IMG/VR virus record: IMGVR_UViG_2548876963_000010 | DNA length: 35,198 nt | Origin: a virus | Lineage: Duplodnaviria > Heunggongvirae > Uroviricota > Caudoviricetes | Reading direction: 5' to 3' (one strand) | In this document: piece by piece, positions 1-34,056 of the stretch | Position numbering within the stretch: the stretch's first letter is position 1 | How the letters are laid out: each line of letters opens with the position of its first letter | Made by a program: the position numbers and the translations under genes | Notes under the pieces: generated by a model | Database searches by the model: none | What the model was told of the DNA's origin: nothing | Seen by the model: only the letters and a program-made list of their open reading frames with translations

Positions 1-1200
1 ATGCTGACCGATACCAAGCTGAAAAACCTCAAAGCGCGAGAAAAACTTTATAAAGTTGCAGACCGTGATGGGCTGTACGTAACCGTATCTCCCAAGGGAT
101 TGGTGACGTTTCGCTATGACTATCGAATCAATGGTCGTCGTGAAACGTTAACCATTGGCCGCTATGGTGACGGTATTTCTCTGGCGCAGGCGCGTGAAAA
201 ATTAGTAGAAGCCAAAAAACGTGTGAATGCAGGAATATCGCCCGCTGTAGAGAAGCGTGACGGTAAAACAAAGCGAAAAGAAGAAAAGACACTCCACGAT
301 TTTACCGTCAGCTACATGAAACACACCCGGCTGGCGGACAGCACAAGGGCGATGAAACAAAGCATTATCGACAGAGACATCACGCCGGTATGGGGTCGCA
401 AGCTGCTGTCAGAGATAACCCCCTCTCTCCTGCGTGAGTATTGCGACAAGATTAAAGCGCGTGGTGCGCCAGCGACGGCGATTCAGGTTCGCAATATCGT
501 TAGTGCGGTATTTAAGTTCGCCGCACTTCACGGCGACTATTACCCCAATCCTGCCGAAGAGGTTTTACCGGCTTCAATTGCGACATTCGAAGCGCGCGAC
601 AGGGCACTCAAGCCAGAGGAGATAGGCTGGTTTTTCAATCAGCTTGAACAAACGGGTACATTACCCACCATCAAGTTGGCCATTAAATTGGTTTTATTAA
701 CGATGGTGCGTAAAGGCGAATTGCTTAACGCGCCGTGGAGCGAGATTAATTTTAATGCCTGCCTTTGGGCGATTGACGCCAGCCGGATGAAGGGGTCACG
801 AGATCATAATGTTTACCTGTCCCGGCAGGCGCAGGACATTCTGATTGCCCTGAAAATGTGCGCAGGAAGCAGTGATTGGGTTTTACCTTCATGCAATCAG
901 TCGTCGCATAAGACCATGTCGGCGGCGACCTTAAACCGGGTCATTAATCTTACGGTTAAGCAGGCGCAGGAACGGGGGATCAGGCTGGCGTCGTTTTCCG
1001 TTCACGATATGCGCCGAACGGCCTCGACGTTATTACATGAGGCTGGGTTTAATTCCGACTGGATAGAAAAGTGTCTCGCGCACGAGGAAAGAAGCGTCAG
1101 AGCCGTTTATAACAAAGCGGAATACGCAGAACAGCGCCGCGACATGTTGCAGCAATGGGCGGATATGATTGATGGATGGATCAAGCAATACCGCCCGTAA
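1..1200 (+). CDS. int: Tyrosine site-specific integrase, P4-type
   Basis: 399 aa ORF starting at window position 1; N-terminal arm-binding-like region (GLYVTVSPKGLVTFRYDYRINGRRETLTIG) and C-terminal catalytic region with HDMRRT...LAHEERSVRAVYNKAEY (R, H-x-x-R, Tyr nucleophile). Confidence 0.9.
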   Translation: MLTDTKLKNLKAREKLYKVADRDGLYVTVSPKGLVTFRYDYRINGRRETLTIGRYGDGISLAQAREKLVEAKKRVNAGISPAVEKRDGKTKRKEEKTLHDFTVSYMKHTRLADSTRAMKQSIIDRDITPVWGRKLLSEITPSLLREYCDKIKARGAPATAIQVRNIVSAVFKFAALHGDYYPNPAEEVLPASIATFEARDRALKPEEIGWFFNQLEQTGTLPTIKLAIKLVLLTMVRKGELLNAPWSEINFNACLWAIDASRMKGSRDHNVYLSRQAQDILIALKMCAGSSDWVLPSCNQSSHKTMSAATLNRVINLTVKQAQERGIRLASFSVHDMRRTASTLLHEAGFNSDWIEKCLAHEERSVRAVYNKAEYAEQRRDMLQQWADMIDGWIKQYRP

Positions 1201-1203
1201 GTA

Positions 1204-1470
1204 CTATGCCGGGATCTTGGTGCCAGAGCGCTTTGGGGCTTTGGCCAGATTCTTCTGTACCGCGTTATCAATATGGTGATGGTTATTTTCCTGCCGTGCC
1301 TTGAGCCAGCGTTCCACTTCCTCTTTGTCCCACGCGACGGCGCGCTTTGTCAGCGCAAAACGTTTGGGAAACAGGCCTTTTTGCTCCAACGCATAAATCG
1401 TACTTTCAGAGAGTGGCACCATCTGTAAAAGCACGTTTTTTCTAATGGCAATTTTCATTGTTTTCCCCAT
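1204..1470 (-). CDS. alpA: AlpA-family small DNA-binding regulator (putative excisionase-like)
   Basis: 88 aa ORF convergent with int; helix-turn-helix-like core LLQMVPLSESTIYALEQKGLFPKRFALTKRAVAWDKEEVERWL typical of AlpA/phage transcriptional regulators; true start may be the internal Met (MKIAIRK, ~1458). Confidence 0.7.
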   Translation of the reverse strand: MGKTMKIAIRKNVLLQMVPLSESTIYALEQKGLFPKRFALTKRAVAWDKEEVERWLKARQENNHHHIDNAVQKNLAKAPKRSGTKIPA

Positions 1471-1819
1471 GCCGTTCGGCGTTCAGGTGTTGCCACTGCG
1501 CTGCAATCCGCTTCATCACCGCATTTCCCTCCGGGATCACCTCCTGCGGTTCTTTCATCAACATTACCCGCCCCTGGATAACGATCAGCGCCTGTTCCAG
1601 CAGGTCATAGTCCAGATAACAGAGGTCGGGAATATCCAGTTGCCACACGTAGCCATTCCATGCAGAAAGCAGTACCTGCGCAGCCGCGCGTCCACCGCTG
1701 GTTTCTGTGATCGCAACGTCGACAAGGGCATTGACAGCAAGGCGGTATTCCTCTGGCGTTACGCAAAGTCTTTGTCGTTGGGTTTCTTGCGTTGCCAGAG
1801 CCTTAAATATTTCGTTCAT
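1442..1819 (-). CDS. Hypothetical protein (125 aa) between alpA and primase
   Basis: Intact ORF in same orientation and operon position as flanking early genes; no motif recognised. Confidence 0.5.
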   Translation of the reverse strand: MNEIFKALATQETQRQRLCVTPEEYRLAVNALVDVAITETSGGRAAAQVLLSAWNGYVWQLDIPDLCYLDYDLLEQALIVIQGRVMLMKEPQEVIPEGNAVMKRIAAQWQHLNAERHGENNENCH

Positions 1820-1828
1820 AACATTTCC

Positions 1829-4483
1829 TTATCGTTGAAAAACCCAACACTTCACCGTCGCCGGGCGGCGCGGTGCGGCAGGGTAACGGCGGTTAAATTC
1901 AGCGTTGATGCCGCTGTTAACCGTTCTGACTTCAATAAACTTGTGGGTACGGCTGGTTTTTAGCACTCGCTTCAAATCGCTGATCGGCGGGATCTGCTGG
2001 CGGCGCTCGGTAGCCAGTTGAATAAAGTGGTTAAGGTTAACGGCGATAAGCTGTTCATCGCGCGAGTGGTTGAGCTGTGGTTCGTCGTCGCCATCGAGGA
2101 AGTCGAAAATATCCCAGAACTCCTGCACCAGAGGATGGTCGGCGCTGATGGCCTGTTGGCGCTCCAGACTGAGGCGGATAAACATTTCTCTGGTCGCCTG
2201 TAGCTGCTCTTCCGTGACCGGAATAACCAGCGCCAGCGCGTCGAGCAACGCCATAAGCTGGGCGTGGTTTTTAATGATGCGGATATGGCGAATATCTGGG
2301 TGGGAGTGAAGCTGCTGCTCATATAGCGGGATCTGCCGGTTAACGCACCCCAGCACGGCCTGTTCTGCCAGCGCTGCTTTCAGCATAAAGCCAGAAAGCT
2401 GTTCCACCGGCAGGCGTTCGAGCTGCTCGGCGGCGACCTTGGTCTGGGTATTCTGACCGCTGCGGTCGGTGTACAGGTGAATAATACGTTCCAGCACCGG
2501 GTTAGAGGCGCTGACGTCGGCGTTTTGCGCAATTACAATCGCGCCCCGGAACGGCGGTTCATAGGTCTCGTTACCGCTGTTACGCAGACCGCGAGAACGT
2601 ACCGACCGCCCGTTGTAGGCGGTTTTCAGCTCTTCCCAATCAAAGCCGCGCTGTTTTGCACCCTCCTGATTACGGTCACCCTCGATCAGCACTACCGGCA
2701 TATTCGCCACCTGCGCAAAGTTGCGCGCGCGGGCGGCCAGCGTTGATTTAGACGGATCGAAACCTTCATAGTCGCGTCGGCCCAACAGTTTCCAGAGGAA
2801 CTCTATCAGCGTGGTTTTACCGCTGCCGGGTTCGCCGACGATTTCCAGAAACGGAAAGCTCTTATGCTTGTCGCGGATCTGTTCGGCAAACATCGTCCCA
2901 AACCAGAACGCCAGCGCCACAAACCCCTTTGCGCCAAACGCCTGCCAGAGTAGCTGGGGCCACTGGCTGTCCATCTGTTTTAAATTGTCGTTCAGCGTCA
3001 GGCTGACCGACTGGTTCAGGCTTTTAAGGCTGAGTTTGCCCATGTCGAAGAAGTCTTCTTCGTTGAGTGCGTACAGCCGACCATCGCGAACGGCCAGATC
3101 GTTGAACACGTAAGCGCGGTATTCTTTGCTATAGCCGATAAAATCGGTGGTCTGGACGGTTTTGATTTTGGGAAGTTGCTTGAGCAGCAGCTTATCTAAC
3201 TGCTGACTAGTGCCAGTAAAGATGCCGCCCTGTGCGATATGCAGCAGGCGCTTTTTGAATTCTGAGCCGCTGGAAAGTTGGGAGCCGGTGAAGGTGTTTT
3301 TTATCGGCGGCGTGTCGTCCGGGAAGTTAATGCGAAAGTAATACCAGCTTTCGTCGGTGATGGTGTTGGCCTGATAGTAGAGGGCGGTCGGGTAGCAGTT
3401 GGCGATCTCCACCACGGCGGACGACTCTTTCAGCGCCTTCTGTTTCAGCTCTTCTTCGCTCAGGTCGTCATTAGAGAATGAGATACTTTCATGCACCCGC
3501 ATATAGCGGTCAATATCCAGCTTGAACCAGAACAGGCGGCTGTCAAACTCGAAGTGGAACTCTTTACGCTCTGTCTGTTCGTGCATCAGCAGGGCTTTGG
3601 CGGCGGGAGAGGTGGCGATCAGCAGAGAGCCGTAGTAGTGGTATTTCTTCACTAGCTCTGGGTTAAGCCGGTCGCGCTGGTGCAAATCGTTCCAGTCCAG
3701 CTTGCTGCGGGAATGCGGCGTCTGTGCGGCGGCTGCGCTCCAGCCTTCGTCCCGGCTGCGCTTTACCCATCGCCGGGTATAGCTCATGCCCGCCTTGTCG
3801 TTATCCAGCGCCCAGACCAGTAAAGGGCGCTTTTTATCCACGAACAGAGCGGCCAGTTGACTTAACGCCTGCGCCGGATAGTTGTTGCAGGTCATCAGGG
3901 AAACGGCGGCGATGCCGTGGTGATGCAAGGCTATGGCGTCAAAAATGCCTTCAACCAGCCAGATCTCCTGCTGTTCTTCCAGCTTCAGCGTTGGCAATTG
4001 CCACCATAGCCCGCTGTAAGCGCCGTGAAAGTTGGCTTTGCGATCGCCGAAACGCTGTGGGCGGTCAACGATTCGCTCCCACCACACGCCGTCAGCCAGC
4101 GGGAAACGCACGGTGGCCGAGCCGATATCGCGCCGTGCGTCGTAGTAGTTCTCTTGAGCGTAACAGTCACGGATCAGCGAAAGGTCAAAGCCGCGCATCT
4201 CGCGCAGGTAGGCATCGGCGGCGGCCTGTGGGTTTTCCGGGGTTGGGGGATATCTGTCTGACCAGCTTTCAAATAGATCCGGGTACACCTCTTTGATATG
4301 GATTTCGGCATTGCATTTATTCAGGCGACCGCAGCGCAGTACCCACGGGCTGATGGCGTTGGTGTACAGCTCTTTTTTCTGGCAGTCCGGGCAGACGCCC
4401 TGCCGCAGCCAGTCGCCCTGTTCTTTAAAGGAAAAATCGGCTAGCAGTCGCCGCGTAATTTCCTGATGAAGTTGTGGTTGCAT
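1829..4483 (-). CDS. Primase-helicase replication protein (P4 alpha-like)
   Basis: 884 aa; N-terminal zinc-finger CPDCQKK...CGRLNKC, Toprim-like acidic motifs (WLVEGIFDAIAL, ALDNDKAG), C-terminal Walker A GEPGSGKT and Walker B-like VVLIEGD. Confidence 0.85.
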   Translation of the reverse strand: MQPQLHQEITRRLLADFSFKEQGDWLRQGVCPDCQKKELYTNAISPWVLRCGRLNKCNAEIHIKEVYPDLFESWSDRYPPTPENPQAAADAYLREMRGFDLSLIRDCYAQENYYDARRDIGSATVRFPLADGVWWERIVDRPQRFGDRKANFHGAYSGLWWQLPTLKLEEQQEIWLVEGIFDAIALHHHGIAAVSLMTCNNYPAQALSQLAALFVDKKRPLLVWALDNDKAGMSYTRRWVKRSRDEGWSAAAAQTPHSRSKLDWNDLHQRDRLNPELVKKYHYYGSLLIATSPAAKALLMHEQTERKEFHFEFDSRLFWFKLDIDRYMRVHESISFSNDDLSEEELKQKALKESSAVVEIANCYPTALYYQANTITDESWYYFRINFPDDTPPIKNTFTGSQLSSGSEFKKRLLHIAQGGIFTGTSQQLDKLLLKQLPKIKTVQTTDFIGYSKEYRAYVFNDLAVRDGRLYALNEEDFFDMGKLSLKSLNQSVSLTLNDNLKQMDSQWPQLLWQAFGAKGFVALAFWFGTMFAEQIRDKHKSFPFLEIVGEPGSGKTTLIEFLWKLLGRRDYEGFDPSKSTLAARARNFAQVANMPVVLIEGDRNQEGAKQRGFDWEELKTAYNGRSVRSRGLRNSGNETYEPPFRGAIVIAQNADVSASNPVLERIIHLYTDRSGQNTQTKVAAEQLERLPVEQLSGFMLKAALAEQAVLGCVNRQIPLYEQQLHSHPDIRHIRIIKNHAQLMALLDALALVIPVTEEQLQATREMFIRLSLERQQAISADHPLVQEFWDIFDFLDGDDEPQLNHSRDEQLIAVNLNHFIQLATERRQQIPPISDLKRVLKTSRTHKFIEVRTVNSGINAEFNRRYPAAPRRPATVKCWVFQR

Positions 4484-4571
4484 TGCCAGTACCTTTATTC
4501 AGGTAATACTTACCCGTCGCATAGACACGTTGTTTATGCGTTGTGGTTGTGAGTCTTTTATTTACTGAGCG

Positions 4572-4802
4572 TTACGCGATTTTCTGCTTTTGCAGAAATT
4601 GCCCGCGTGTGGATAGCGGTATGTGTATCTTAGGATTCGGGCAACCGCTGGGTACTACCGTTCCCATCACGGTCTCCATCGCGATAAATGAAAACGAACA
4701 GTTAACGTTCTTGCACTGGTAATAGAGCTTACGTACCAGCGGTGACATATATTCGCTGCTGCGAATTATCGCCTTACCGTCGCAGTGTGGGCATTTCATC
4801 AT
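4572..4802 (-). CDS. ogr: Ogr/Delta-family zinc-finger late transcription activator
   Basis: MMKCPHCDGKA...YYQCKNVNCSFSF matches the C-x2-C...C-x4-C Ogr zinc-finger pattern (P2 Ogr has CPLCQH...HQCQNVNCSATF); strong RBS TAAGGAGA 6 nt upstream of ATG at 4802; the listed ORF start at 4820 is a GTG inside the RBS. Confidence 0.85.
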   Translation of the reverse strand: MMKCPHCDGKAIIRSSEYMSPLVRKLYYQCKNVNCSFSFIAMETVMGTVVPSGCPNPKIHIPLSTRGQFLQKQKIA

Positions 4803-4838
4803 GTCCGATCTCCTTACCACTTTTAACTAACTGAAACA

Positions 4839-5045
4839 CTAACGCTTTTCGTTAACGGACTGACGAAATAGTGTGATGCCGTTCAAAAAAATGATTCTTG
4901 CCATGCTGGACATCGAACGGTTCTGCTCCAGCGCTAATGCTTCCAGTTCCGCGATTTCAGCGGGGAGCAGACGCATTGCCACCGGTTTGTTCGACATCAC
5001 CCCGCGGGGTGCTCGTGAGCGTAAGACGTTCTCATTTGTTTTCAT
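4839..5045 (-). CDS. Small ribbon-helix-helix-like protein, putative Cox-like early regulator
   Basis: 68 aa ORF divergent from XRE gene; segment VAMRLLPAEIAELEALALEQNRSMSSMARIIFLNGI has beta-strand/helix/helix pattern of Arc/CopG family; start uncertain (5045 or internal Met at ~4997). Confidence 0.5.
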   Translation of the reverse strand: MKTNENVLRSRAPRGVMSNKPVAMRLLPAEIAELEALALEQNRSMSSMARIIFLNGITLFRQSVNEKR

Positions 5046-5125
5046 GGTGGTATATTGTGGTTATTAACATTACACAATCTATAATTCCCTCAACTGAGTG
5101 AATTGTCAATGGTAATTATATCCAA

Positions 5126-5464
5126 ATGAAAGAATTTGGCATCCGTTTGAAGGAAGAACGTATCCGACTTGGACTTGATCAAGACGGCTTTGGACAACTT
5201 GGGGGCGTGAAGAAAAACGCACAAAGCAACTATGAGAATGGGTTGCGTAAGCCGGACAGTGACTATCTTGCTGGCATAGCGGCAGCGGGAGTTGATGTTC
5301 TGTATGTTCTAACAGGCAACCGCACGCCTGTAGTTACGTTGTCCAGTAAAGAGAGTGTGTTGGTGGAAAACTATCGTTCTGCTACGCCAGAACACCAGTC
5401 CACCCTTGACACGGTTAGCGCTGCGCTTGCGCAACCGGGAGTAGGGAAAGCAGCTAAGGGATAA
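5126..5464 (+). CDS. XRE-family helix-turn-helix regulator, putative immunity repressor (C-like)
   Basis: 112 aa; N-terminal HTH-like region with QSNYENGLRKPDSDYLAGIAAAGVDVLYVLTG; divergent arrangement with RHH gene across an 80-bp AT-rich switch region. Confidence 0.7.
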   Translation: MKEFGIRLKEERIRLGLDQDGFGQLGGVKKNAQSNYENGLRKPDSDYLAGIAAAGVDVLYVLTGNRTPVVTLSSKESVLVENYRSATPEHQSTLDTVSAALAQPGVGKAAKG

Positions 5465-5504
5465 CGAGTAGAATGAATTTGGTTATTGTCTGTATGGAGG
5501 CAAA

Positions 5505-6077
5505 ATGAAGTTGAATAATCTGGTTGCTCTTTACAGGAACATGACAGAGCAAAAATTGGATAGGGTTAAATTCCCATACAGACACAATAATTTACATTTT
5601 GATGTATTTTTCTTTATTGATGGAAAACCGTTTGAGCTTCTTTTCGGAGCATTAGGCGCTAATCTTTGCTTTCGTCTAAAAGTCGAGAAGGGATTCGTCA
5701 TAAATCCTAATCTGGGAAGTGAGACTTATAAAGAATTATGCAAGGCTCTAGGTTTGAAATATGACCCTGCCAATCCATTTAGAACAAGTAAGTTTTTTGA
5801 AGATTTTGATGGGAAAATCCCTCCATCGGTTACTGTTAAGAATAAGGCAAAATATACTGATATTGCTGTGCATGTCAGGGATGTTGAAGAAGCAGACAGA
5901 ATATATTTCTGTGGATGGAAAAACAACAATGAAGAAAAGAGTCATGTTACTGAAGATAATTTAAAGAAAACGAAAGAGTTTTTAGGGTATCAGGCTTTTC
6001 TTGTTTGTAAGGAAAAGAATATTAGCAGTAGATGGACTGATTTAGAAAATAAAGCGAAAGATTTTTATTTACCATAG
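5505..6077 (+). CDS. Hypothetical protein (190 aa), first gene of AT-rich cargo cassette
   Basis: ORF with GGAGG RBS 8 nt upstream; markedly AT-rich codon usage compared with flanking phage genes; no motif recognised. Confidence 0.6.
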   Translation: MKLNNLVALYRNMTEQKLDRVKFPYRHNNLHFDVFFFIDGKPFELLFGALGANLCFRLKVEKGFVINPNLGSETYKELCKALGLKYDPANPFRTSKFFEDFDGKIPPSVTVKNKAKYTDIAVHVRDVEEADRIYFCGWKNNNEEKSHVTEDNLKKTKEFLGYQAFLVCKEKNISSRWTDLENKAKDFYLP

Positions 6078-6091
6078 GATTGTGAGGTTAT

Positions 6092-7240
6092 ATGTCTGAT
6101 ATTTCATTAGGGTGCGTGGTTGTTCATAGGTTGATAAAAGAGCAACATAAAGATTTCGATCACTCAAAACCATATAGTCGCCGTGATACGGTTCTTGACC
6201 GAAATAATGAAATCGTAATTAAACTAGTGTCCAGTATAGCCGCATTGTATGGTAAAAAATCTAATAGCTCGCATTATGGTATATTTAATTTAGATGAAAC
6301 ACGTAGGGGGCCTTTTCCAGCGGCATTTGATAAATATCGGAATGATACATCCAAGAAGTTAGACGATGAATTGTTTATAGGATTATCAAAAAATGTTATG
6401 CATCAGTTATATATTGAGGCAAAGGATCGACCTGCTGCATCAGGAGGATTACTTCTTTTTGCTGATTATATCAGTAAATCCGTGCGTTACTTTCTTATTG
6501 CAATGATTAAGCAAAAGGAAGGTATAGTTATTAGTGATAAATTAGAACCAAAGGAGTTAGAGCATCTTGATCTGGCAAAACTAAATCAGGCGGCACGAAT
6601 AAACTATGATTTGTATGATAAATATATTTCCGCTGATGAGAATGAAAGACAGGATGTTAATTATTTAAGTTTTGTTAGTCCCAGTTCTAACCAGACAACT
6701 TCAGGGTATTTCATTACTGCCTTAGGTTGTGATAAAGGTAATACATCAACTAAAGCTACGAGTAATTTAATTAATGAATCTTTTAACTTCTTCAGAAATC
6801 ATCAAGAATTAAAGGATAATGCCCGTAAATTTAAAAATGAAATTATTGAGTATTTATTCGATTGTTCTGAGAATAACATTTCAGCTAAGCTCTCTGTTGT
6901 TAGTGAGATGGCAGCGAAGCATATGGTTAATTTAGAAGATGACATTAAAGATAAATTGTCAGAAGAATTATATGCTCATTTGAATAGTGAAAGTATTCGT
7001 GTGCCTGTGGAATTTAGGGTAAGCAAATCAGTAGTTAAGAAAAACAGAAATATTAAATATACAAGTGATAATGTTAATTTTGAGTTTAAATCTAGTTTAC
7101 TAGGCAATACGCTTGATAATGAGATATGCTATAATAAGAAAACTGGACATTTAACTTTTACTCGGATTACTCCTGAGAAAAAAAGTGAAATAGCTCAATT
7201 GCTTGATGAGTTAATAAAAGAAAGAAATAGCGAAAAATAA
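6092..7240 (+). CDS. YejK/NdpA-like (nucleoid-associated protein family) protein, 382 aa
   Basis: N-terminal VVVHRLIKEQHK (cf. E. coli YejK ALHQLIKRDEQ, recalled from memory), SIAALYGKKSNSSHYGIF (cf. ELHRVYSAKNKAYGLF) and ASGGLLLFADYISKSVRYFLIAMI (cf. [24 protein letters not shown]); RBS GTGAGG upstream. Confidence 0.6.
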   Translation: MSDISLGCVVVHRLIKEQHKDFDHSKPYSRRDTVLDRNNEIVIKLVSSIAALYGKKSNSSHYGIFNLDETRRGPFPAAFDKYRNDTSKKLDDELFIGLSKNVMHQLYIEAKDRPAASGGLLLFADYISKSVRYFLIAMIKQKEGIVISDKLEPKELEHLDLAKLNQAARINYDLYDKYISADENERQDVNYLSFVSPSSNQTTSGYFITALGCDKGNTSTKATSNLINESFNFFRNHQELKDNARKFKNEIIEYLFDCSENNISAKLSVVSEMAAKHMVNLEDDIKDKLSEELYAHLNSESIRVPVEFRVSKSVVKKNRNIKYTSDNVNFEFKSSLLGNTLDNEICYNKKTGHLTFTRITPEKKSEIAQLLDELIKERNSEK

Positions 7241-7251
7241 GGTTGCTTAAT

Positions 7252-8508
7252 ATGTCATGTTTTGAAACGGTTGTTGAGCTTTTCAGATATGTAGGGCGTC
7301 CTAAATTTGATGCTATTAATAATCGTTTTTCAGCAACTATTTCTTATGATGCTCATATATATGAACTCTTAGTTTCTTTGCAACCTCATACCGCGTGGGG
7401 AGAAATTGAAGAGATTGTCATTGATGATGTGGATATAGATGTTGATGATAGCCTTCCCGCTAAAGGAACATCAATAACACTGACAATCTCTATATCAACT
7501 GGAGCCAGTGAGTCATTTTTTATCGATATTAAAGATCTAATTCAAAAGTCTCCGATGTTAAATAGAGGTATTTTAAGAAAGTCTTTTTACTTGGTTGAGG
7601 AAGATTTTTATTTTAATGAAGGAATGGTTGAGGGATTAGCAAAAATACCAGAACTATCTGTTTTAAAAAATCTTTGTGATTTTATTTTATGTCTATCAAA
7701 AGTTGCACACTACAGCAATAGTAAAAGTGATGATGTATGCCATAAGTTAGTTTTCTTGAAAAATACTAATGCTAAGTCATTACCTTTAATTATTGAAACT
7801 AATGTTGATTATTCACTTCTTTTAACAGGTATTAAGGATTTAAAAATCATCGAATCTTTTTCTGATGAAAAAAAAGCTATAACGGATGATAATTATTTTG
7901 AGCGAAAAGGGATTTTCATTAATACGGTGGTCGATTTTCTTGAATCAATCGATGTAAAGAAACAGTTTCATTTTTTATTCTGTGAGTGGGATGAATTTCT
8001 AAAACTATACCATAATAACCTCGGTGTATATCTTAGTGGTTTTTCATTTCATAAAGTAAGAAAGGAAGTGGCAGAGGCAGAAGCTAATTTAGCTGAGCGT
8101 TTTTCAAAAATAATGTCAGACATGATAGCTAAGCTTTTAGGTATTCCTGTTTCTTTGGTTGCTACTTTTGGCATGATAAAATTAAATACCCTGCCGGAAA
8201 TGTTAGTGGTTTTTTTAGGTGTATTGCTCACGTCGATAATTATGTTTTTTATTGTAAGAAGTCAATACACACAGTTTAGGATGATTTGTGATGCTAAAGA
8301 TATTATATTTTCCCCATTAGTGAAAAAATCTGTAGGTTATACAGAAGATTTGAAAAAATTAGTATGCAATGCAAAGGATAATTTAGACAAAAATCAGGTC
8401 ATGTTAAATCGTTACCTTCTTTTCTTTCAATGCTTATGCTGGATTCCGACAGCCTTAGGTGGTGGAATGATCTTAATGGCTATTATGGTTCATTTAGGAT
8501 TACTATAA
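7252..8508 (+). CDS. Hypothetical protein (418 aa) with C-terminal transmembrane helices
   Basis: ATG at 7252 (listed ORF starts at a TTG at 7243); hydrophobic stretches IPVSLVATFGMIKL...MLVVFLGVLLTSIIMFFIV and YLLFFQCLCWIPTALGGGMILMAIMVHLGLL at the C-terminus; AT-rich. Confidence 0.6.
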   Translation: MSCFETVVELFRYVGRPKFDAINNRFSATISYDAHIYELLVSLQPHTAWGEIEEIVIDDVDIDVDDSLPAKGTSITLTISISTGASESFFIDIKDLIQKSPMLNRGILRKSFYLVEEDFYFNEGMVEGLAKIPELSVLKNLCDFILCLSKVAHYSNSKSDDVCHKLVFLKNTNAKSLPLIIETNVDYSLLLTGIKDLKIIESFSDEKKAITDDNYFERKGIFINTVVDFLESIDVKKQFHFLFCEWDEFLKLYHNNLGVYLSGFSFHKVRKEVAEAEANLAERFSKIMSDMIAKLLGIPVSLVATFGMIKLNTLPEMLVVFLGVLLTSIIMFFIVRSQYTQFRMICDAKDIIFSPLVKKSVGYTEDLKKLVCNAKDNLDKNQVMLNRYLLFFQCLCWIPTALGGGMILMAIMVHLGLL

Positions 8509-15087: not shown

Positions 15088-15124
15088 GCTTCCACTTGTA
15101 ACCACTGGCACTACAAGCAGAAGC
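15088..15124. promoter_or_regulatory. Late-promoter-like dyad upstream of FI operon (TGT-N13-ACA within 13-bp imperfect inverted repeat)
   Basis: gcttccacTTGTAaccactggcacTACAAgcagaagc; TGT 15097-15099, ACA 15113-15115. Confidence 0.55.
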
Positions 15125-15129
15125 GGTTT

Positions 15130-15888
15130 TTAATTCAGGATAATCAGTTCTGATGTGGCGCTGGCTGGCTTTCCGCCTACGGTATAGCGAATCCCTACCG
15201 TTGAGAATGTCAGGCCGTGGAAGATATCGCGCATTTCCGGGATGTCATTAACCGAGATAATCATCCGGCCCTGCATGGTGCGCGCCAGCTCTGCCATTCG
15301 CTGGTACTGCTCAAGGCCAAATGGTACGCCGTAGCCTTCGGTTTTCCAGTATGGAGGGTCGCAGTAGAACAGGGTATGCGGGCGGTCATAGCGGCGAATA
15401 CATTCGGCCCAGTCCAGATTTTCAATACAGACGCGCGCCAGCCGCAGATGGGCGGCGGATAAATCCTCTTCCATACGCAGCAGGTTCAGGCGCGGCGGTG
15501 AGGTGGTGGCGGTACCGAATGTGCGACTTTCCACTTTGCCGCCGAATGCCAGCTTTTGCAGATAGTAGAAGCGCGCCGCGCGCTGGATATCGGTCAGCGT
15601 TTCTTCCGGGGTGATCTGGAGCCAGCGGTACATTTCGCGGCTGACCAGCGACCATTTAAACTGGCGGACAAACTCTTCTAAATGGTGCTGGAGTACGCGG
15701 TAGAGGTTGGTAACGTCGCCGTTGATATCATTCAGCACCTCGGCCTGTGCGGGCTGTTTCATAAAGAACAACGCCGCCGCCCCGCAGAACGGTTCAACGT
15801 AGCAGCGGTGTTTGGGAAACAGCGGCAGAATGTGTTTTGCCAGCCTGCGCTTACCGCCGATCCACGGAATAATGGGTAACGTATTCAT
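15130..15888 (-). CDS. dam: DNA adenine methyltransferase (Dam/D12 class N6-adenine MTase), orphan
   Basis: 252 aa; SAM-binding motif EPFCGAAALFF and catalytic DPPY in FYCDPPYW; no adjacent restriction endonuclease gene. Confidence 0.9.
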   Translation of the reverse strand: MNTLPIIPWIGGKRRLAKHILPLFPKHRCYVEPFCGAAALFFMKQPAQAEVLNDINGDVTNLYRVLQHHLEEFVRQFKWSLVSREMYRWLQITPEETLTDIQRAARFYYLQKLAFGGKVESRTFGTATTSPPRLNLLRMEEDLSAAHLRLARVCIENLDWAECIRRYDRPHTLFYCDPPYWKTEGYGVPFGLEQYQRMAELARTMQGRMIISVNDIPEMRDIFHGLTFSTVGIRYTVGGKPASATSELIILN

Positions 15889-16352
15889 ATTGTCAATTTT
15901 CCAGATCGACTGCAGATCAGTGCATACAGCAGATTAGGTGAATAACGCCAGCTATCACGCAGATGCAGAAATTCGGCGCAGAACTCGCTGCAAAACAGGC
16001 GCTCCTGTTTGCCCTGACTGAGTAACACAAAACCAATGGCACCCAGCCAGTCGTAACCTTTATCGTCGTGCTGACGGAAAAAGGTTTCCAGTGCCAGCGG
16101 ATCGGCGTTGATCGGGAGTAAATCCCATTTCTCAATCGGCAGCGGCATTCGTTTGCTGCGCACGCCTTTATCCCGTACCGATGATGAGTAACAGATAAAC
16201 AGGCCATCCGGCTGGCGTTCGACCAGTTCGCAGTGAGAGTAAGGGCCGCGCGTGACCTGTCGCGTCAGCCAGTCGGAGAGCCGGGCAAGGCTGAAAAAGC
16301 GTTCAGCCCGGCCACGGTAGAACGCCGCGTAAACCTGACTCATGGTTGCCAT
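15885..16352 (-). CDS. Hypothetical protein (155 aa) co-located with dam
   Basis: ATGA-overlapped with dam start, 13-bp overlap with G stop; Cys/His-containing (YSHCELV, CSEFC) but no family recognised. Confidence 0.55.
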   Translation of the reverse strand: MATMSQVYAAFYRGRAERFFSLARLSDWLTRQVTRGPYSHCELVERQPDGLFICYSSSVRDKGVRSKRMPLPIEKWDLLPINADPLALETFFRQHDDKGYDWLGAIGFVLLSQGKQERLFCSEFCAEFLHLRDSWRYSPNLLYALICSRSGKLTI

Positions 16353-17047
16353 CCTGACGAGTAGTCGTAACCCATAACCGCCTGCACCTCCGTCAATACT
16401 TCAACGGCGGCAATATGCTGCTGGGCAGCGGCGAACAGGCGCATATCGTGCGCCATTGTTTCGGTTTCAAACCGGGCGGCGATTTCGTTGGTCAGTTCAA
16501 TCAGGTTGTGATTTTTGGTCTGCCACATTAAGCCTGCCGGTATTTGTTTAGCCACGCCCATTTTGGTGAGCGAGAGCTGCTGGATGCGGCTGTTAGCGTC
16601 GCTGTGGAAATGGTGATTATCGATGATGATGTAGTCGGCGGTGATTCGATCGCGATACTGCTTTATTTCTGCCACCTTTGCCTGTCGGGCTTTTTCGATA
16701 TCGGGCCGCCAGCGTTTGCCGTCCCAACGGACAAAGGCGTTATCGGGCTTCAGCAGAGTGACGTTATCCGGCAATGGCCCCAGATGATGAAGCTGTACCT
16801 CACTGCCCGCATCGGTATCAAACGCGGTTTTACCGCGATGATCTTCTACCGCAAGCCATGTTTCTCCGTTGAATGTCAGGGCAAAGCCGCTCTGGCATTC
16901 GGGCGGTTCGATAGTGGTACAGCATTCCGGTAAGCCGGTGTTGGGGGCGATATAGACGTCGCTGACGCCGATAAATTCCTGAGTATCTGCCGCGTAGTTA
17001 AAGATGCGCAGGGTTTGCGGTTCGTCGGAAAATGCGAATGTGCTCAT
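16340..17047 (-). CDS. G: Tail fiber assembly protein (P2 gpG-like)
   Basis: 235 aa directly downstream of tail fiber gene with 4-bp overlap. Confidence 0.8.
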
Positions 17048-25846: not shown

Positions 25847-26014
25847 TCAAGTGAAAAGGCTAAAACAGATCAGTACCAACTTCGTCTTGCTCATGAATTT
25901 AGAAAGCAGCTTGAAGAACAGGCTCGTAAAGATGGAGATACCTCTCTCGCAACATGGATAAAACGCGTTTTGCGTAAGGAACTTCAGTCACGAGGTATTG
26001 AACCCAAAGGATAA
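25844..26014 (+). CDS. Small ribbon-helix-helix (Arc/MetJ-like) DNA-binding protein, 56 aa
   Basis: Not in supplied ORF track (below its length cutoff); MSSEKAKTDQYQLRLAHEFRKQLEEQARKDGDTSLATWIKRVLRKELQSRGIEPKG: beta-strand then two helices as in Arc. Confidence 0.6.
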   Translation: MSSEKAKTDQYQLRLAHEFRKQLEEQARKDGDTSLATWIKRVLRKELQSRGIEPKG

Positions 26015-26115
26015 TTACGGAGATATCAAGCAGCGCTAAGAAGTTAGGATTATTTGTTCAGCCCAGATTAGTCGATATGCACTGATTAACTTAAACATTG
26101 TGTGTAGGAGGTGTT

Positions 26116-26769
26116 GTGGATATTGAATTTTTTCTTAAAGAGCGCACAAGATTCGTTACTTATTTCTATGAAACGGCTGCTGCACCATTTGTTAACATCA
26201 TGAATGATATTGAGAATGAAGTGGAACCTTATATTCAGCCGTATGGTGAGAGTGATGAACCAGCTTTTTTAGATGAATGGTTAGATGCAAAGTCGGGATT
26301 AGAAACCTGTGGGCACCATGCATTATCGATGCTTTCGTCTTCTCTTCAGTTGTACCTGAAGGCGTGGGTAGATCGCTTAGGATATCATAGCGTGAAATCT
26401 GATATAAATTTCAAGAAGGGTTGGTTTAATGGCTATCGTGAAATTTTCAACAAAATTGAGTTGGAAATGGCAAAATGTCCTGCAAATTTGGAAATAATTG
26501 AACAAATTCCCTTGGTGAGAAATCGTGTCCAGCATCCTGAGGAACTTACCTCAATTAATATTTCTCACTCAAAAAATGACTTGGAAAAATATCCTCGCCC
26601 ATACTTTATTCAGGAGTGTGAGCTACTTTTGGCTTCCGAACAGGAAGAAAAATCGTGGTTATTCCCACCTACAATATCCCCGACTAAAGAGAAAATATTC
26701 GAAGCTATCAGAAATGTTGAAATGCTGTGCTCTTGGTTAGAGTCTGAGTATTGGTCGGCTCTTGACTAA
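26116..26769 (+). CDS. Hypothetical protein (217 aa) with R-x4-H motif, possible HEPN-domain protein
   Basis: GTG start at 26116 with AGGAGG 6 nt upstream (ORF track lists 26098); AT-rich; motif VRNRVQHPEE (R-x4-H). Confidence 0.55.
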   Translation: MDIEFFLKERTRFVTYFYETAAAPFVNIMNDIENEVEPYIQPYGESDEPAFLDEWLDAKSGLETCGHHALSMLSSSLQLYLKAWVDRLGYHSVKSDINFKKGWFNGYREIFNKIELEMAKCPANLEIIEQIPLVRNRVQHPEELTSINISHSKNDLEKYPRPYFIQECELLLASEQEEKSWLFPPTISPTKEKIFEAIRNVEMLCSWLESEYWSALD

Positions 26770-26858
26770 ATGTAGAATAGAGTAAGTCAGCGTCAAATGA
26801 AAACAGCCCGACGAATCGGGCTATTATGGCTATCAGGCAAACACTACCTTCAAACTCA

Positions 26859-30340: not shown

Positions 30341-30368
30341 CGCTTGTAATCATCCGGGTTACAAGCGG
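30341..30368. promoter_or_regulatory. Late-promoter-like dyad in divergent O/P intergenic region (TGT-N13-ACA)
   Basis: GCTTGTAA-tcatccggg-TTACAAGC; TGT 30345-30347, ACA 30361-30363. Confidence 0.55.
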
Positions 30369-33256: not shown

Positions 33257-33292
33257 ACGCCTTCTCACCGCCAGAATCTCCAGCCAGCACCG

Positions 33293-33311
33293 CCAGCGCG
33301 CGGTTGTGACC
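33293..33311. other. Candidate cos site (cohesive-end sequence)
   Basis: Reverse complement reads GGCGTGGCGGGGTCACAAC; first 12 nt match the GGCG(A/T)GGCGGGG start of the P2/186 cohesive ends as I recall them. Confidence 0.4.
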
Positions 33312-33510
33312 CCGCCACGCCTGCGCAGTAAATAGATCGCTTTTTTTGCACTGGTGCGTAAGCGTCGGAGCGGGCCATAACGGGAGGGCGTGGTCGGGTT
33401 GCGGGTGCAGCAGAATCATGCGGATTTATGCGCCCTGTGTATGCGCCAGAGACGATCGGGAGGACAATGCCACGATCCTTTCGGTATTTTTGGATCGCCT
33501 GTCGGGAAAA

Positions 33511-33786
33511 GGTAACCTCAGTAATTGGCAGTAAAAATAATGCTTATTCTATTGTTTATAAAAGAGAAATTTGGTTACCCATAAAAGGTAATCTGAGGTA
33601 ACCCAAAAGGTAACCTGTTTTATATTTTCATATAAATCATAATGTTACCAATTAGAAGAGATCACTATTATAAAAGGTAACCTGATTACCCTTTGGTTAC
33701 CAGAAGATTACCTTTCTCTGTTTTTGAAAAATCCTTTTTATTCATTAAGTTATTTTGATTTTTCGTTGCAGGTTACGAAGGTTACC
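33511..33786. repeat. Cluster of GGTAACC/GGTTACC heptamer repeats (consensus AAAGGTAACC) in both orientations
   Basis: Exact heptamers at 33511, 33573, 33597, 33609, 33676, 33694, 33780 plus variants (GGTAATC, GATTACC, GTTACCA, GGTTACG) in ~280 bp of AT-rich non-coding DNA. Confidence 0.8.
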
Positions 33787-34056
33787 TTTTTCCGAAGCCC
33801 CCACGGACTTTGGTATATATAGATAGGTTAAAAAGTAGCCATTATGTTTGCCTGCTATTTACTTCCCATTCTTCCACTGGCCAGCATGTTAATATGCCCG
33901 GTAATGATAACTCGTTGCCGTTGGGTTACTTTCTTCTGTGGACGGTAAAACTGACGGTAAATTGGGTAATGTGTCTCTATTTAGACTATGAAAATCAAGT
34001 AATTAAAGTGATTGTATATAATCGAGTGGGAATGATTTGACCCTGCACTATGAATG

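Follow-up and report, generated by a model that had tools for sequence, protein, structure and literature searches.

Early region of a guaA-integrated P2-like prophage of the phiCTX/RSY1 type, with a P4-type integrase, AlpA and a primase-helicase common to full phages

The viral record IMGVR_UViG_2548876963_000010 (Caudoviricetes), a stretch of 35,198 nucleotides hereafter called the window, carries at its left end (positions 1-5464) a P4-type integrase, an AlpA protein and a primase-helicase, followed by late genes of the P2 type. The question raised by this locus is whether the early block is an unusual satellite module grafted on a P2-like phage, as a first-pass annotation of the sequence proposed, or belongs to the phage itself. 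We consider it very probable that the early genes for lysogeny and replication at 1-5464 are native to one apparently intact ~34-kb P2-like prophage (Peduoviridae) of the phiCTX/RSA1/RSY1 type, residing in the 3' end of guaA. Since the layout is already present in the published genome of RSY1 and in the annotation of phiCTX, it is a known architecture and not a new P4/P2 hybrid, and the proposal of a grafted module falls against the published phiCTX/RSA1/RSY1 arrangement (PMC5694545). The architecture was known earlier from phiCTX (1999, record annotation), RSA1/RSY1 and Smp131, and an ogr gene on the early strand, together with a P4-type integrase and this primase, is the normal state of this P2-like branch. 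What is new is a rare phiCTX/RSY1-type lineage in Escherichia and Edwardsiella that has guaA as its attachment site.

Judged from its sequence and its flanks, the element is one prophage of ~34 kb, with attL in the guaA 3' end and attR at ~34030. At its right end the window passes into host DNA with recognisable yfgI and yfgH; 5422/5426 complete E. coli genomes match the window from ~34014 onward, the position at which phage-free genomes begin to align, and the phage part is found in only three or four (4/5426), i.e. it is rare in E. coli. The first-pass annotation had left it to the DNA outside the window to reveal an att site on the left, or P2 A/B/C/cox homologues that would make the block a separate satellite. 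The flanks contain host genes instead, guaA on the left and yfgI/yfgH on the right, and attL was located at the 3' end of guaA in near-identical contigs. One of these encodes an identical primase and is 100% identical to the window over the compared 1300 nt of int-alpA; the same placement of guaA relative to int is seen in an E. coli chromosome of 97% identity, and in both left-flank sequences guaA ends ~220 bp before int. Host genes on both flanks indicate a single prophage, not a satellite beside a phage.

The attR core (ATCGAGTGGGAATGATT, 34021-34037, plus strand) is a copy of the last codons and the stop codon of guaA: the last guaA codons, ATTGAGTGGGAATGAT, recur at this position, and 13 bp of the core (GAGTGGGAATGAT) are common to the attL found at the guaA 3' end in contigs L001 and L042. 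No second copy of the core is present within the window. Two tandem GACGGTAAA repeats (33941-33961, plus strand) are presumed to be arm-type sites of Int (P arm); on the attL side, L001, L042 and an Edwardsiella prophage have further copies in the stretch that separates the att core from int. Copies of the repeat thus stand to either side of the core, and in Edwardsiella they have been retained along with int. That prophage, of Edwardsiella ictaluri ATCC 33202 (L008 15338-15580), is a related element (Int 88%, primase 90% identity) integrated in the guaA 3' end with the same att core and the same TGACGGTAAA arm repeats, which shows guaA to be a conserved attachment site of this integrase lineage across genera. 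Immediately beyond the att core, at 5779-5850 of L001 and at the equivalent place in L042, the phage supplies a terminator-like hairpin (AACCGCCTTGATTTTAAGGCGGTTTTTT), from which it follows that the integrated prophage replaces the last codons of guaA as well as its terminator.

The genes previously named in the early block (an integrase, AlpA, a small open reading frame (ORF), an 884-amino acid (aa) primase-helicase and Ogr) are all present according to the ORF map and to Pfam and PHROG matches. The gene run described before needs two amendments: the integrase lies on the strand opposite to AlpA, and an Arc-like and a cI-like gene (4839-5464) had not been described. The P4-type tyrosine integrase (1-1200, plus strand, 399 aa) comprises the PF13356 (Arm-DNA-bind_3), PF22022 (Phage_int_M) and PF00589 (catalytic) domains and is transcribed away from attL, convergently with alpA. 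It shares 30% identity over 410 aa with P4 Int (E 2.6e-39), and its catalytic residues R237, H335, R338, H361 and Y370 are invariant in an alignment with the P4, RSY1 and Edwardsiella integrases. The AlpA/Vis-like small helix-turn-helix (HTH) protein (1204-1470, minus strand; PF05930, E 8e-13), which is 39% identical to P4 ORF88 (Vis) and 38% to RSY1 ORF48, matches phrog_66 and phrog_2790, both carrying an excisionase annotation. It is presumably the excisionase (directionality factor), encoded by the last gene of the early operon. The small ORF (1442-1819, minus strand) encodes a protein of the family DUF7673 (PF24720); its gene lies directly downstream of the primase gene, is kept in the Edwardsiella and Erwinia relatives, and has a family member in phiCTX, orf38. 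The primase-helicase (1829-4483, minus strand, 884 aa) shows a Toprim_2 domain, a Walker A motif (GEPGSGKT) and a match to phrog_1139.

Upstream of the primase gene and within the early operon lies the gene of an Ogr/Delta-type zinc-finger activator of late genes (4572-4820, minus strand; PF04606, E 1e-19), which has a C-X2-C-X22-C-X4-C motif and shares 47% identity with RSY1 ORF40, 42% with P2 Ogr and 32% with P4 Delta. Its place on the early-gene strand had been noted correctly, and it is where RSY1 ORF40 and phiCTX orf34 are found. The first gene of the leftward early operon encodes an Arc-like ribbon-helix-helix protein (4839-5045, minus strand; phrog_3431 'Arc-like repressor', E 3e-24, and a weak RHH_5 match), which is kept in Edwardsiella (84%) and Erwinia (76%) and is presumed to be an analogue of Cro/Cox/Apl. 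Facing it is the gene of a cI-like HTH repressor (5126-5464, plus strand, 112 aa; HTH_3/HTH_31, repressor families phrog_8 and phrog_4) that has no peptidase domain, is oriented opposite to the early operon, and shares 41% identity with RSY1 ORF38 and 49% with the phiCTX ORF at the equivalent position. The switch region between the two (5046-5125) contains the dyad TGTGGTTATTAACATTACACA and face-to-face promoter-like sites; a consensus scan places TTGACA-17-AATTAT on the minus strand at 5109-5081 and a plus-strand site at 5029-5056. These consensus matches suggest that the region may control both the repressor gene and the early operon.

As stated earlier for this DNA, the P2 early genes are absent from the window: in a tblastx comparison of the early half of P2 (24000-33593) with the window ogr is the sole match, and the window is devoid of the A nickase (PF05840), B, C, cox, a P2-type Int (PF24624), tin and old. 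The corresponding comparison with P4 matches int, ORF88/vis and delta only, with no sid, psu, epsilon, cII or gop/beta. Going by sequence, Int and AlpA alone are true P4-family proteins in the early block. The GC content of the early block (50-57%) passes without a break into that of the late genes (51-59%), while the cargo blocks have 30-40%.

A complete P2-type late set for virion, lysis and packaging, D through Q, was found at 8503-33187, which, together with the single att pair, upholds the earlier statement that the element is a full phage with an early region of its own that is not that of P2. The set comprises Q P O N M L X, lysis genes, R S V W J I H and FI FII E T U D. When every ORF was compared with P2, phiCTX and RSY1 by tblastn, the late genes showed 40-70% identity; each of Q P O N M L, FI FII E T U D and V W J I H shares 40-62% with P2 and 44-70% with RSY1. 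With 55% identity, the endolysin (23609-24199, minus strand) belongs to the phiCTX/RSY1 type; it does not match P2 K, a further sign that the phage sits with the phiCTX group rather than with P2. A cos core was located at 33290-33345 by local alignment to the reverse complement of the P2, phiCTX and RSY1 cos regions, the alignment predicting the cohesive end at ~33302-33320. The element has in common with P2 the full late set, an Ogr, a cos core that is homologous, dyads for activation ahead of the late operons and presumed face-to-face switch promoters. It differs in that attP of P2 is next to ogr and not to cos, and in that P2 ogr has its own promoter after D.

The window contains four dyads of the form TGTA-N11-TACA, a motif found by reading the intergenic regions, against 0.16 expected, and 0/100 shuffled sequences reach four. 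All four stand upstream of late operons: at 15097-15115 upstream of FI, at 21435-21453 upstream of V, at 25146-25164 upstream of the X, lysis and R/S genes, and at 30345-30363 between the divergent O and P. The V dyad is centred 56 nt from the start codon of V, as is the activator site of P2 pV, the position of the O/P dyad parallels that of the P2 pO/pP activator site, and the distances between dyads and genes in general resemble those of P2 activator sites. We presume that the dyads are the Ogr sites of four late promoters. The P2 consensus TGT-N12-ACA and the RSY1 motif TGTTGT-N13-ACAACA were also considered as late-promoter motifs; neither is enriched nor intergenic in the window.

The primase-helicase matches phrog_1139 over its full length (1264 bits) and shares full-length identity with RSY1 ORF47 (58%), ESSI2_ev239 (52%) and phiCTX orf37 (49%); it also has matches in, among others, Smp131 and Halomonas phage 4908. 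Family members number at least 1911 and are uniform in length (~890 aa), and the identical protein occurs in 77 blocks of the collection. Assignment to the P4 alpha family was considered and rejected: BLASTP and tblastn matches are not significant, similarity is confined to motifs, and hhalign aligns the Toprim region only (85.6% probability). None of the alpha domains (Zn_Ribbon_Prim, Toprim_3, D5_N, DUF5906, Pox_D5) scores above threshold in the primase of the window. The description of the module as P4-like thus stands for Int and AlpA and not for the primase, which is of the phiCTX orf37/RSY1 ORF47 family. Its likeness to a satellite module is one of function (primase, helicase and DNA-binding initiator), not of family membership.

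The predicted domains of the protein are a zinc finger, a DnaG-type Toprim, an AAA+ helicase resembling Cch and the Rep proteins of Staphylococcus aureus pathogenicity islands (SaPIs), and a C-terminal winged-helix-like domain. Sequence searches of the PDB with the primase and with its profile returned nothing significant, and the fold search alone was informative. In an AF2 model built on 27 homologues (pLDDT 85), the C-terminal ~550 residues find SCCmec Cch (PDB code: 5dgk; E 3e-14, TMt 0.55) and SaPIbov1 Rep (PDB code: 8tch; E 1e-11) by Foldseek, and the N-terminal part finds DnaG zinc-binding and RNA-polymerase domains (PDB codes: 2au3, 5w33). The last ~100 residues (784-883) are modelled as helix-strand-helix-helix-strand, which is typical of a winged helix. 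On the strength of this model the protein is presumed to be a self-loading initiator helicase similar to Cch and SaPI Rep, fused to a DnaG-type primase. The SaPI Pri/Rep proteins (PriRep5, Rep1, SaPIbov1 Rep) and SCCmec Cch are the best structural matches of the C-terminal ~550 residues; they come, however, from islands of Gram-positive bacteria, and no sequence similarity to the primase of the window was detected.

RSY1 (Ralstonia phage phiRSY1; Peduoviridae, Arsyunavirus) is among the closest known systems. It possesses the same primase (ORF47), AlpA-like protein (ORF48) and convergent Arm-DNA-bind_3 integrase (ORF49), an Ogr homologue (ORF40) within the early operon, a related repressor (ORF38) facing the other way, and attP beside cos with GGTAAY repeats between them. 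Its authors describe the early third of RSY1 as markedly different from P2, with int/att beside cos and not beside ogr and with an ogr homologue, orf40, among the early genes; they identify ORF47 as a DnaG-type primase (PMC5694545). RSY1 differs from the element in the window by its integration site (tRNA-Ser and not guaA), an integrase only 26% identical, the lack of the DUF7673 gene, a larger number of small early ORFs and a Vgr-like cargo gene next to cos. Pseudomonas phage phiCTX (Citexvirus) has the same order of cos, Q...D, repressor side, orf34 (ogr-like), orf37 (primase), orf38 (DUF7673), int, attP, repeats and cos; it differs in its integrase, which has another arm-binding domain (PF12167) and is transcribed toward attP, in its site (tRNA-Ser) and in its ctx cargo, and no AlpA gene was detected in it. 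As in phiCTX and RSY1, int and att stand beside cos at the end of the early operon in the window (attR at 34021-34037, int by attL).

The synteny extends in Edwardsiella ictaluri from FI through D, cI, arc, ogr, primase, DUF7673 and alpA to int, and in an Erwinia metagenome-assembled genome as far as DUF7673, with no match to alpA or int. The order D, cargo, cI and early operon is kept in phiCTX, RSY1, Edwardsiella, Erwinia and IMG/VR contigs. Escherichia phage ESSI2_ev239 (Evevirus) shares the primase family, followed by a small gene (not scanned) at the position of DUF7673, but has a P2-style int/repressor/Cox-like arrangement, late genes that are 25-59% identical where detected, and tail genes most of which have no match. 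The same primase is thus paired with a P2-style int/repressor/Cox set in ESSI2_ev239 and with an Arm-DNA-bind_2 integrase in phiCTX; lysogeny modules swapped around a conserved replication gene are ordinary phage mosaicism. The nearest isolated phages in the collection searched are nevertheless distant: the best terminase match is 64%, late-region DNA matches cover ~5% at ~73%, and a megablast search of 1-5500 against the phage collection gave no match.

The idea that a P2 late set was recently joined by a satellite early module of the P4 kind (int, AlpA, an alpha-type primase) to form a novel chimera draws on the identities of Int (30%) and AlpA (39%) to P4 Int and Vis, on a domain order of the primase (zinc finger, Toprim, P-loop NTPase, C-terminal DNA-binding part) that parallels alpha, on the hhalign alignment of the Toprim region with alpha, and on the occurrence of the primase family in a satellite-like E. 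coli island. We regard it as improbable. The primase has neither a significant match to alpha nor the alpha domains and shows a deep, phage-wide distribution; the module is common to isolated full phages of Pseudomonas, Ralstonia, Stenotrophomonas and Halomonas; sid, psu and epsilon are missing; there is no GC discontinuity; and the layout was published before. P4 itself shares with the window the Int family, Vis/ORF88 and the Delta/Ogr zinc finger, as well as an analogous function, a primase, helicase and ori-binding protein acting at repeats (ori/crr), but its alpha protein (Zn_Ribbon_Prim, Toprim_3, D5_N, DUF5906 and Pox_D5) has an SF3-type helicase, and P4 is 11.6 kb long and has no virion genes. 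Still harder to sustain, and in our estimate very improbable, is a tandem arrangement of a satellite or island at 1-5464 and a P2-like prophage that has lost its own early genes or keeps them elsewhere. A P4-type int with AlpA is typical of islands, and between the early block and gene D there is low-GC cargo (5505-8508); against this, one att core is present in the window and one at guaA, the remainder would be left without repressor, replication genes, integrase and late activator, and the order from D over the cargo to cI and the early operon is conserved across relatives.

A third reading accepts all gene identities given above and takes the prophage to be cryptic, no longer inducible, with an early region that is intact in sequence and non-functional. 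The absence of an autocleavage domain in the repressor, which leaves no obvious route to SOS induction, and the rarity of the element (4/5426 complete E. coli genomes) speak for it, whereas every expected gene is full-length and retains its catalytic or motif residues, the att, cos and late promoter sites are in place, and the exact primase recurs in 77 collection blocks; we hold this reading to be unlikely, if less so than the chimera. Two points count against our own interpretation of a native early region in an intact prophage: attL lies outside the window and was read from near-identical contigs, and we infer prophage activity, the structure of the early transcript, the excisionase role of AlpA and the origin. 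For annotation it follows that a P2-like prophage without A/B/C/cox is not to be called defective nor split into 'satellite plus phage'.

Gene identities, synteny, the att, cos, repeat and dyad sequences and the fold were computed; from these we infer regulation, origin and mode of replication, and propose the following course of events. The P4-type Int would recombine the 13-17-bp core that copies the guaA stop region, aided by the GACGGTAAA arm sites. In the lysogen, the cI-like repressor (5126-5464) would keep the early promoter shut. Upon derepression the early operon would be expressed in the order Arc-like Cro/Cox analogue, Ogr, primase-helicase, DUF7673 and AlpA, the last acting as excisionase. 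The primase-helicase would then start theta-type replication, most likely at a GGTAAY cluster between attP and cos, in place of the rolling-circle system of P2 that depends on the A nickase. Ogr made from the early transcript would switch on the four TGTA-N11-TACA dyad promoters of the late genes, and the DNA would be cut for packaging at the P2-type cos adjoining attP.

The candidate replication origin is an AT-rich block at 33507-33795, between cos and attR, with 11 RGGTAAY repeats arranged in opposed sets around an AT-rich centre (Poisson P ~9e-10 against a window background of 0.79 per 300 bp). Between attP/int and cos or the record ends, phiCTX has 14 GGTAAY copies, RSY1 10 and Halomonas phage 4908 8, and Smp131 has an 11-copy cluster ~2.3 kb beyond attP, near the record ends; the cluster is also present in the IMG/VR contigs whose cos-proximal region was retrieved, and absent from P2 and P4. 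The use of an attP-cos GGTAAY cluster as a trait of the phiCTX/RSY1 group is a criterion of the present analysis and not an established definition. In the phiCTX record the 14 GGTAAT repeats are annotated just as 'R3 repeats', with IHF sites, and no assignment of the origin of phiCTX, RSY1 or Smp131 was found in the literature searched. SaPI Pri/Rep combines a primase and an initiator helicase, and the C-terminal winged helix of the SaPI Reps binds short iterons of 5-6 nt, present in 6-12 copies as opposed sets around an AT-rich centre (PMC9371898). The anatomy of 33507-33795 matches this layout, and we therefore propose the cluster as the origin used by the primase-helicase, which we judge to have even or slightly better than even chances. 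Unlike the SaPI origin, which is directly downstream of rep, the candidate origin is ~2.3 kb away, across attP/int.

An E. coli JP538 island (L007 13009-24884, in the hpt-gcd interval), satellite-like and ~12 kb long, bears on this proposal. It encodes a phiCTX-family primase (48%), two integrase-like proteins, an Icd-like and an ogr/Delta-like gene product and a 423-aa capsid protein of the P2 family, and no tail or terminase genes were annotated or matched in it. At 16262-16537, ~1.3 kb from the primase gene, it has 14 CGGTTACA repeats with a GTAACC core, in opposed sets around AT-rich spacers. Partial primase matches similar to this island occur in ~28 complete E. coli genomes. Clusters with a GTAAC core are accordingly found as GGTAAY beside cos in phages of Escherichia, Pseudomonas, Ralstonia, Stenotrophomonas and Halomonas, and as CGGTTACA in the E. 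coli island.

Other roles of the repeats were weighed. Arm sites of Int were rejected: phiCTX has the same repeats with an Int of a different arm-binding domain, the Smp131 cluster is ~2.3 kb from attP, and in the window it is the distinct GACGGTAAA repeat that flanks the core. Terminase or packaging sites are a less likely alternative, given that P2, with an equally related terminase, lacks GGTAAY repeats and that similar repeats occur in the JP538 island, where no terminase gene is annotated or matched. Several observations nonetheless tell against the origin proposal. In full phages the cluster is always near cos, as a packaging role would have it; ESSI2_ev239 and the Pseudomonas group L012 have a 52%-identical primase and no GGTAAY cluster in the DNA examined; and identity of the C-terminal domain of the primase does not cleanly separate cluster-bearing from cluster-less elements. 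Of 80 IMG/VR loci compared for co-occurrence of primase and cluster, most stop at the boundary of the prophage, a short way beyond the primase gene. With about even chances, a large P2-like branch replicates by a theta replicon of the island/satellite type, consisting of a primase fused to a self-loading Rep/Cch-like helicase and an origin of GTAAC-core repeats, and mobile between helper-type phages and satellite-like islands. The conserved repeats and the SaPI-Rep-like fold provide a testable proposal for the start of replication in the whole phage group, and the link they indicate between phage and satellite replicons is relevant to phage biologists.

Several further blocks were noted in the window. 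Between the repressor gene and D, a low-GC (30-41%) cargo (5505-8508) holds three genes, which encode a DUF6037 protein, an NA37/YejK-like nucleoid-associated protein and a 421-aa protein whose C-terminal part is hydrophobic (phrog_5023). None of them has a PADLOC match. Near-identical E. coli prophages retain the cargo, and in the Edwardsiella relative its place is taken by a ~2-kb gap where no genes match. The cargo may serve lysogenic conversion or act against other phages. The head/lysis operon contains a second low-GC insert (25703-26858) of ~40% GC, preceded by TGTAATTACA palindromes, with ORFs of 56 aa (25844-26014, plus strand) and 223 aa (26098-26769, plus strand) that have no Pfam or PADLOC match. 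The dyad at 25146 may compensate for the interruption of the operon by this insert. A HicA toxin/HicB antitoxin pair (21495-22090, minus strand) lies between S and V, at the position of the nonessential orf30 of P2. The sole PADLOC match among the cargo genes is a Type II/orphan DNA methyltransferase (15130-15888, minus strand; PDLC03253, E 2.8e-115) directly upstream of FI, and the FI late-promoter dyad adjoins the 3' end of its gene. In the E. coli relative H4, an extra DNA adenine methylase gene is found inside the early region.

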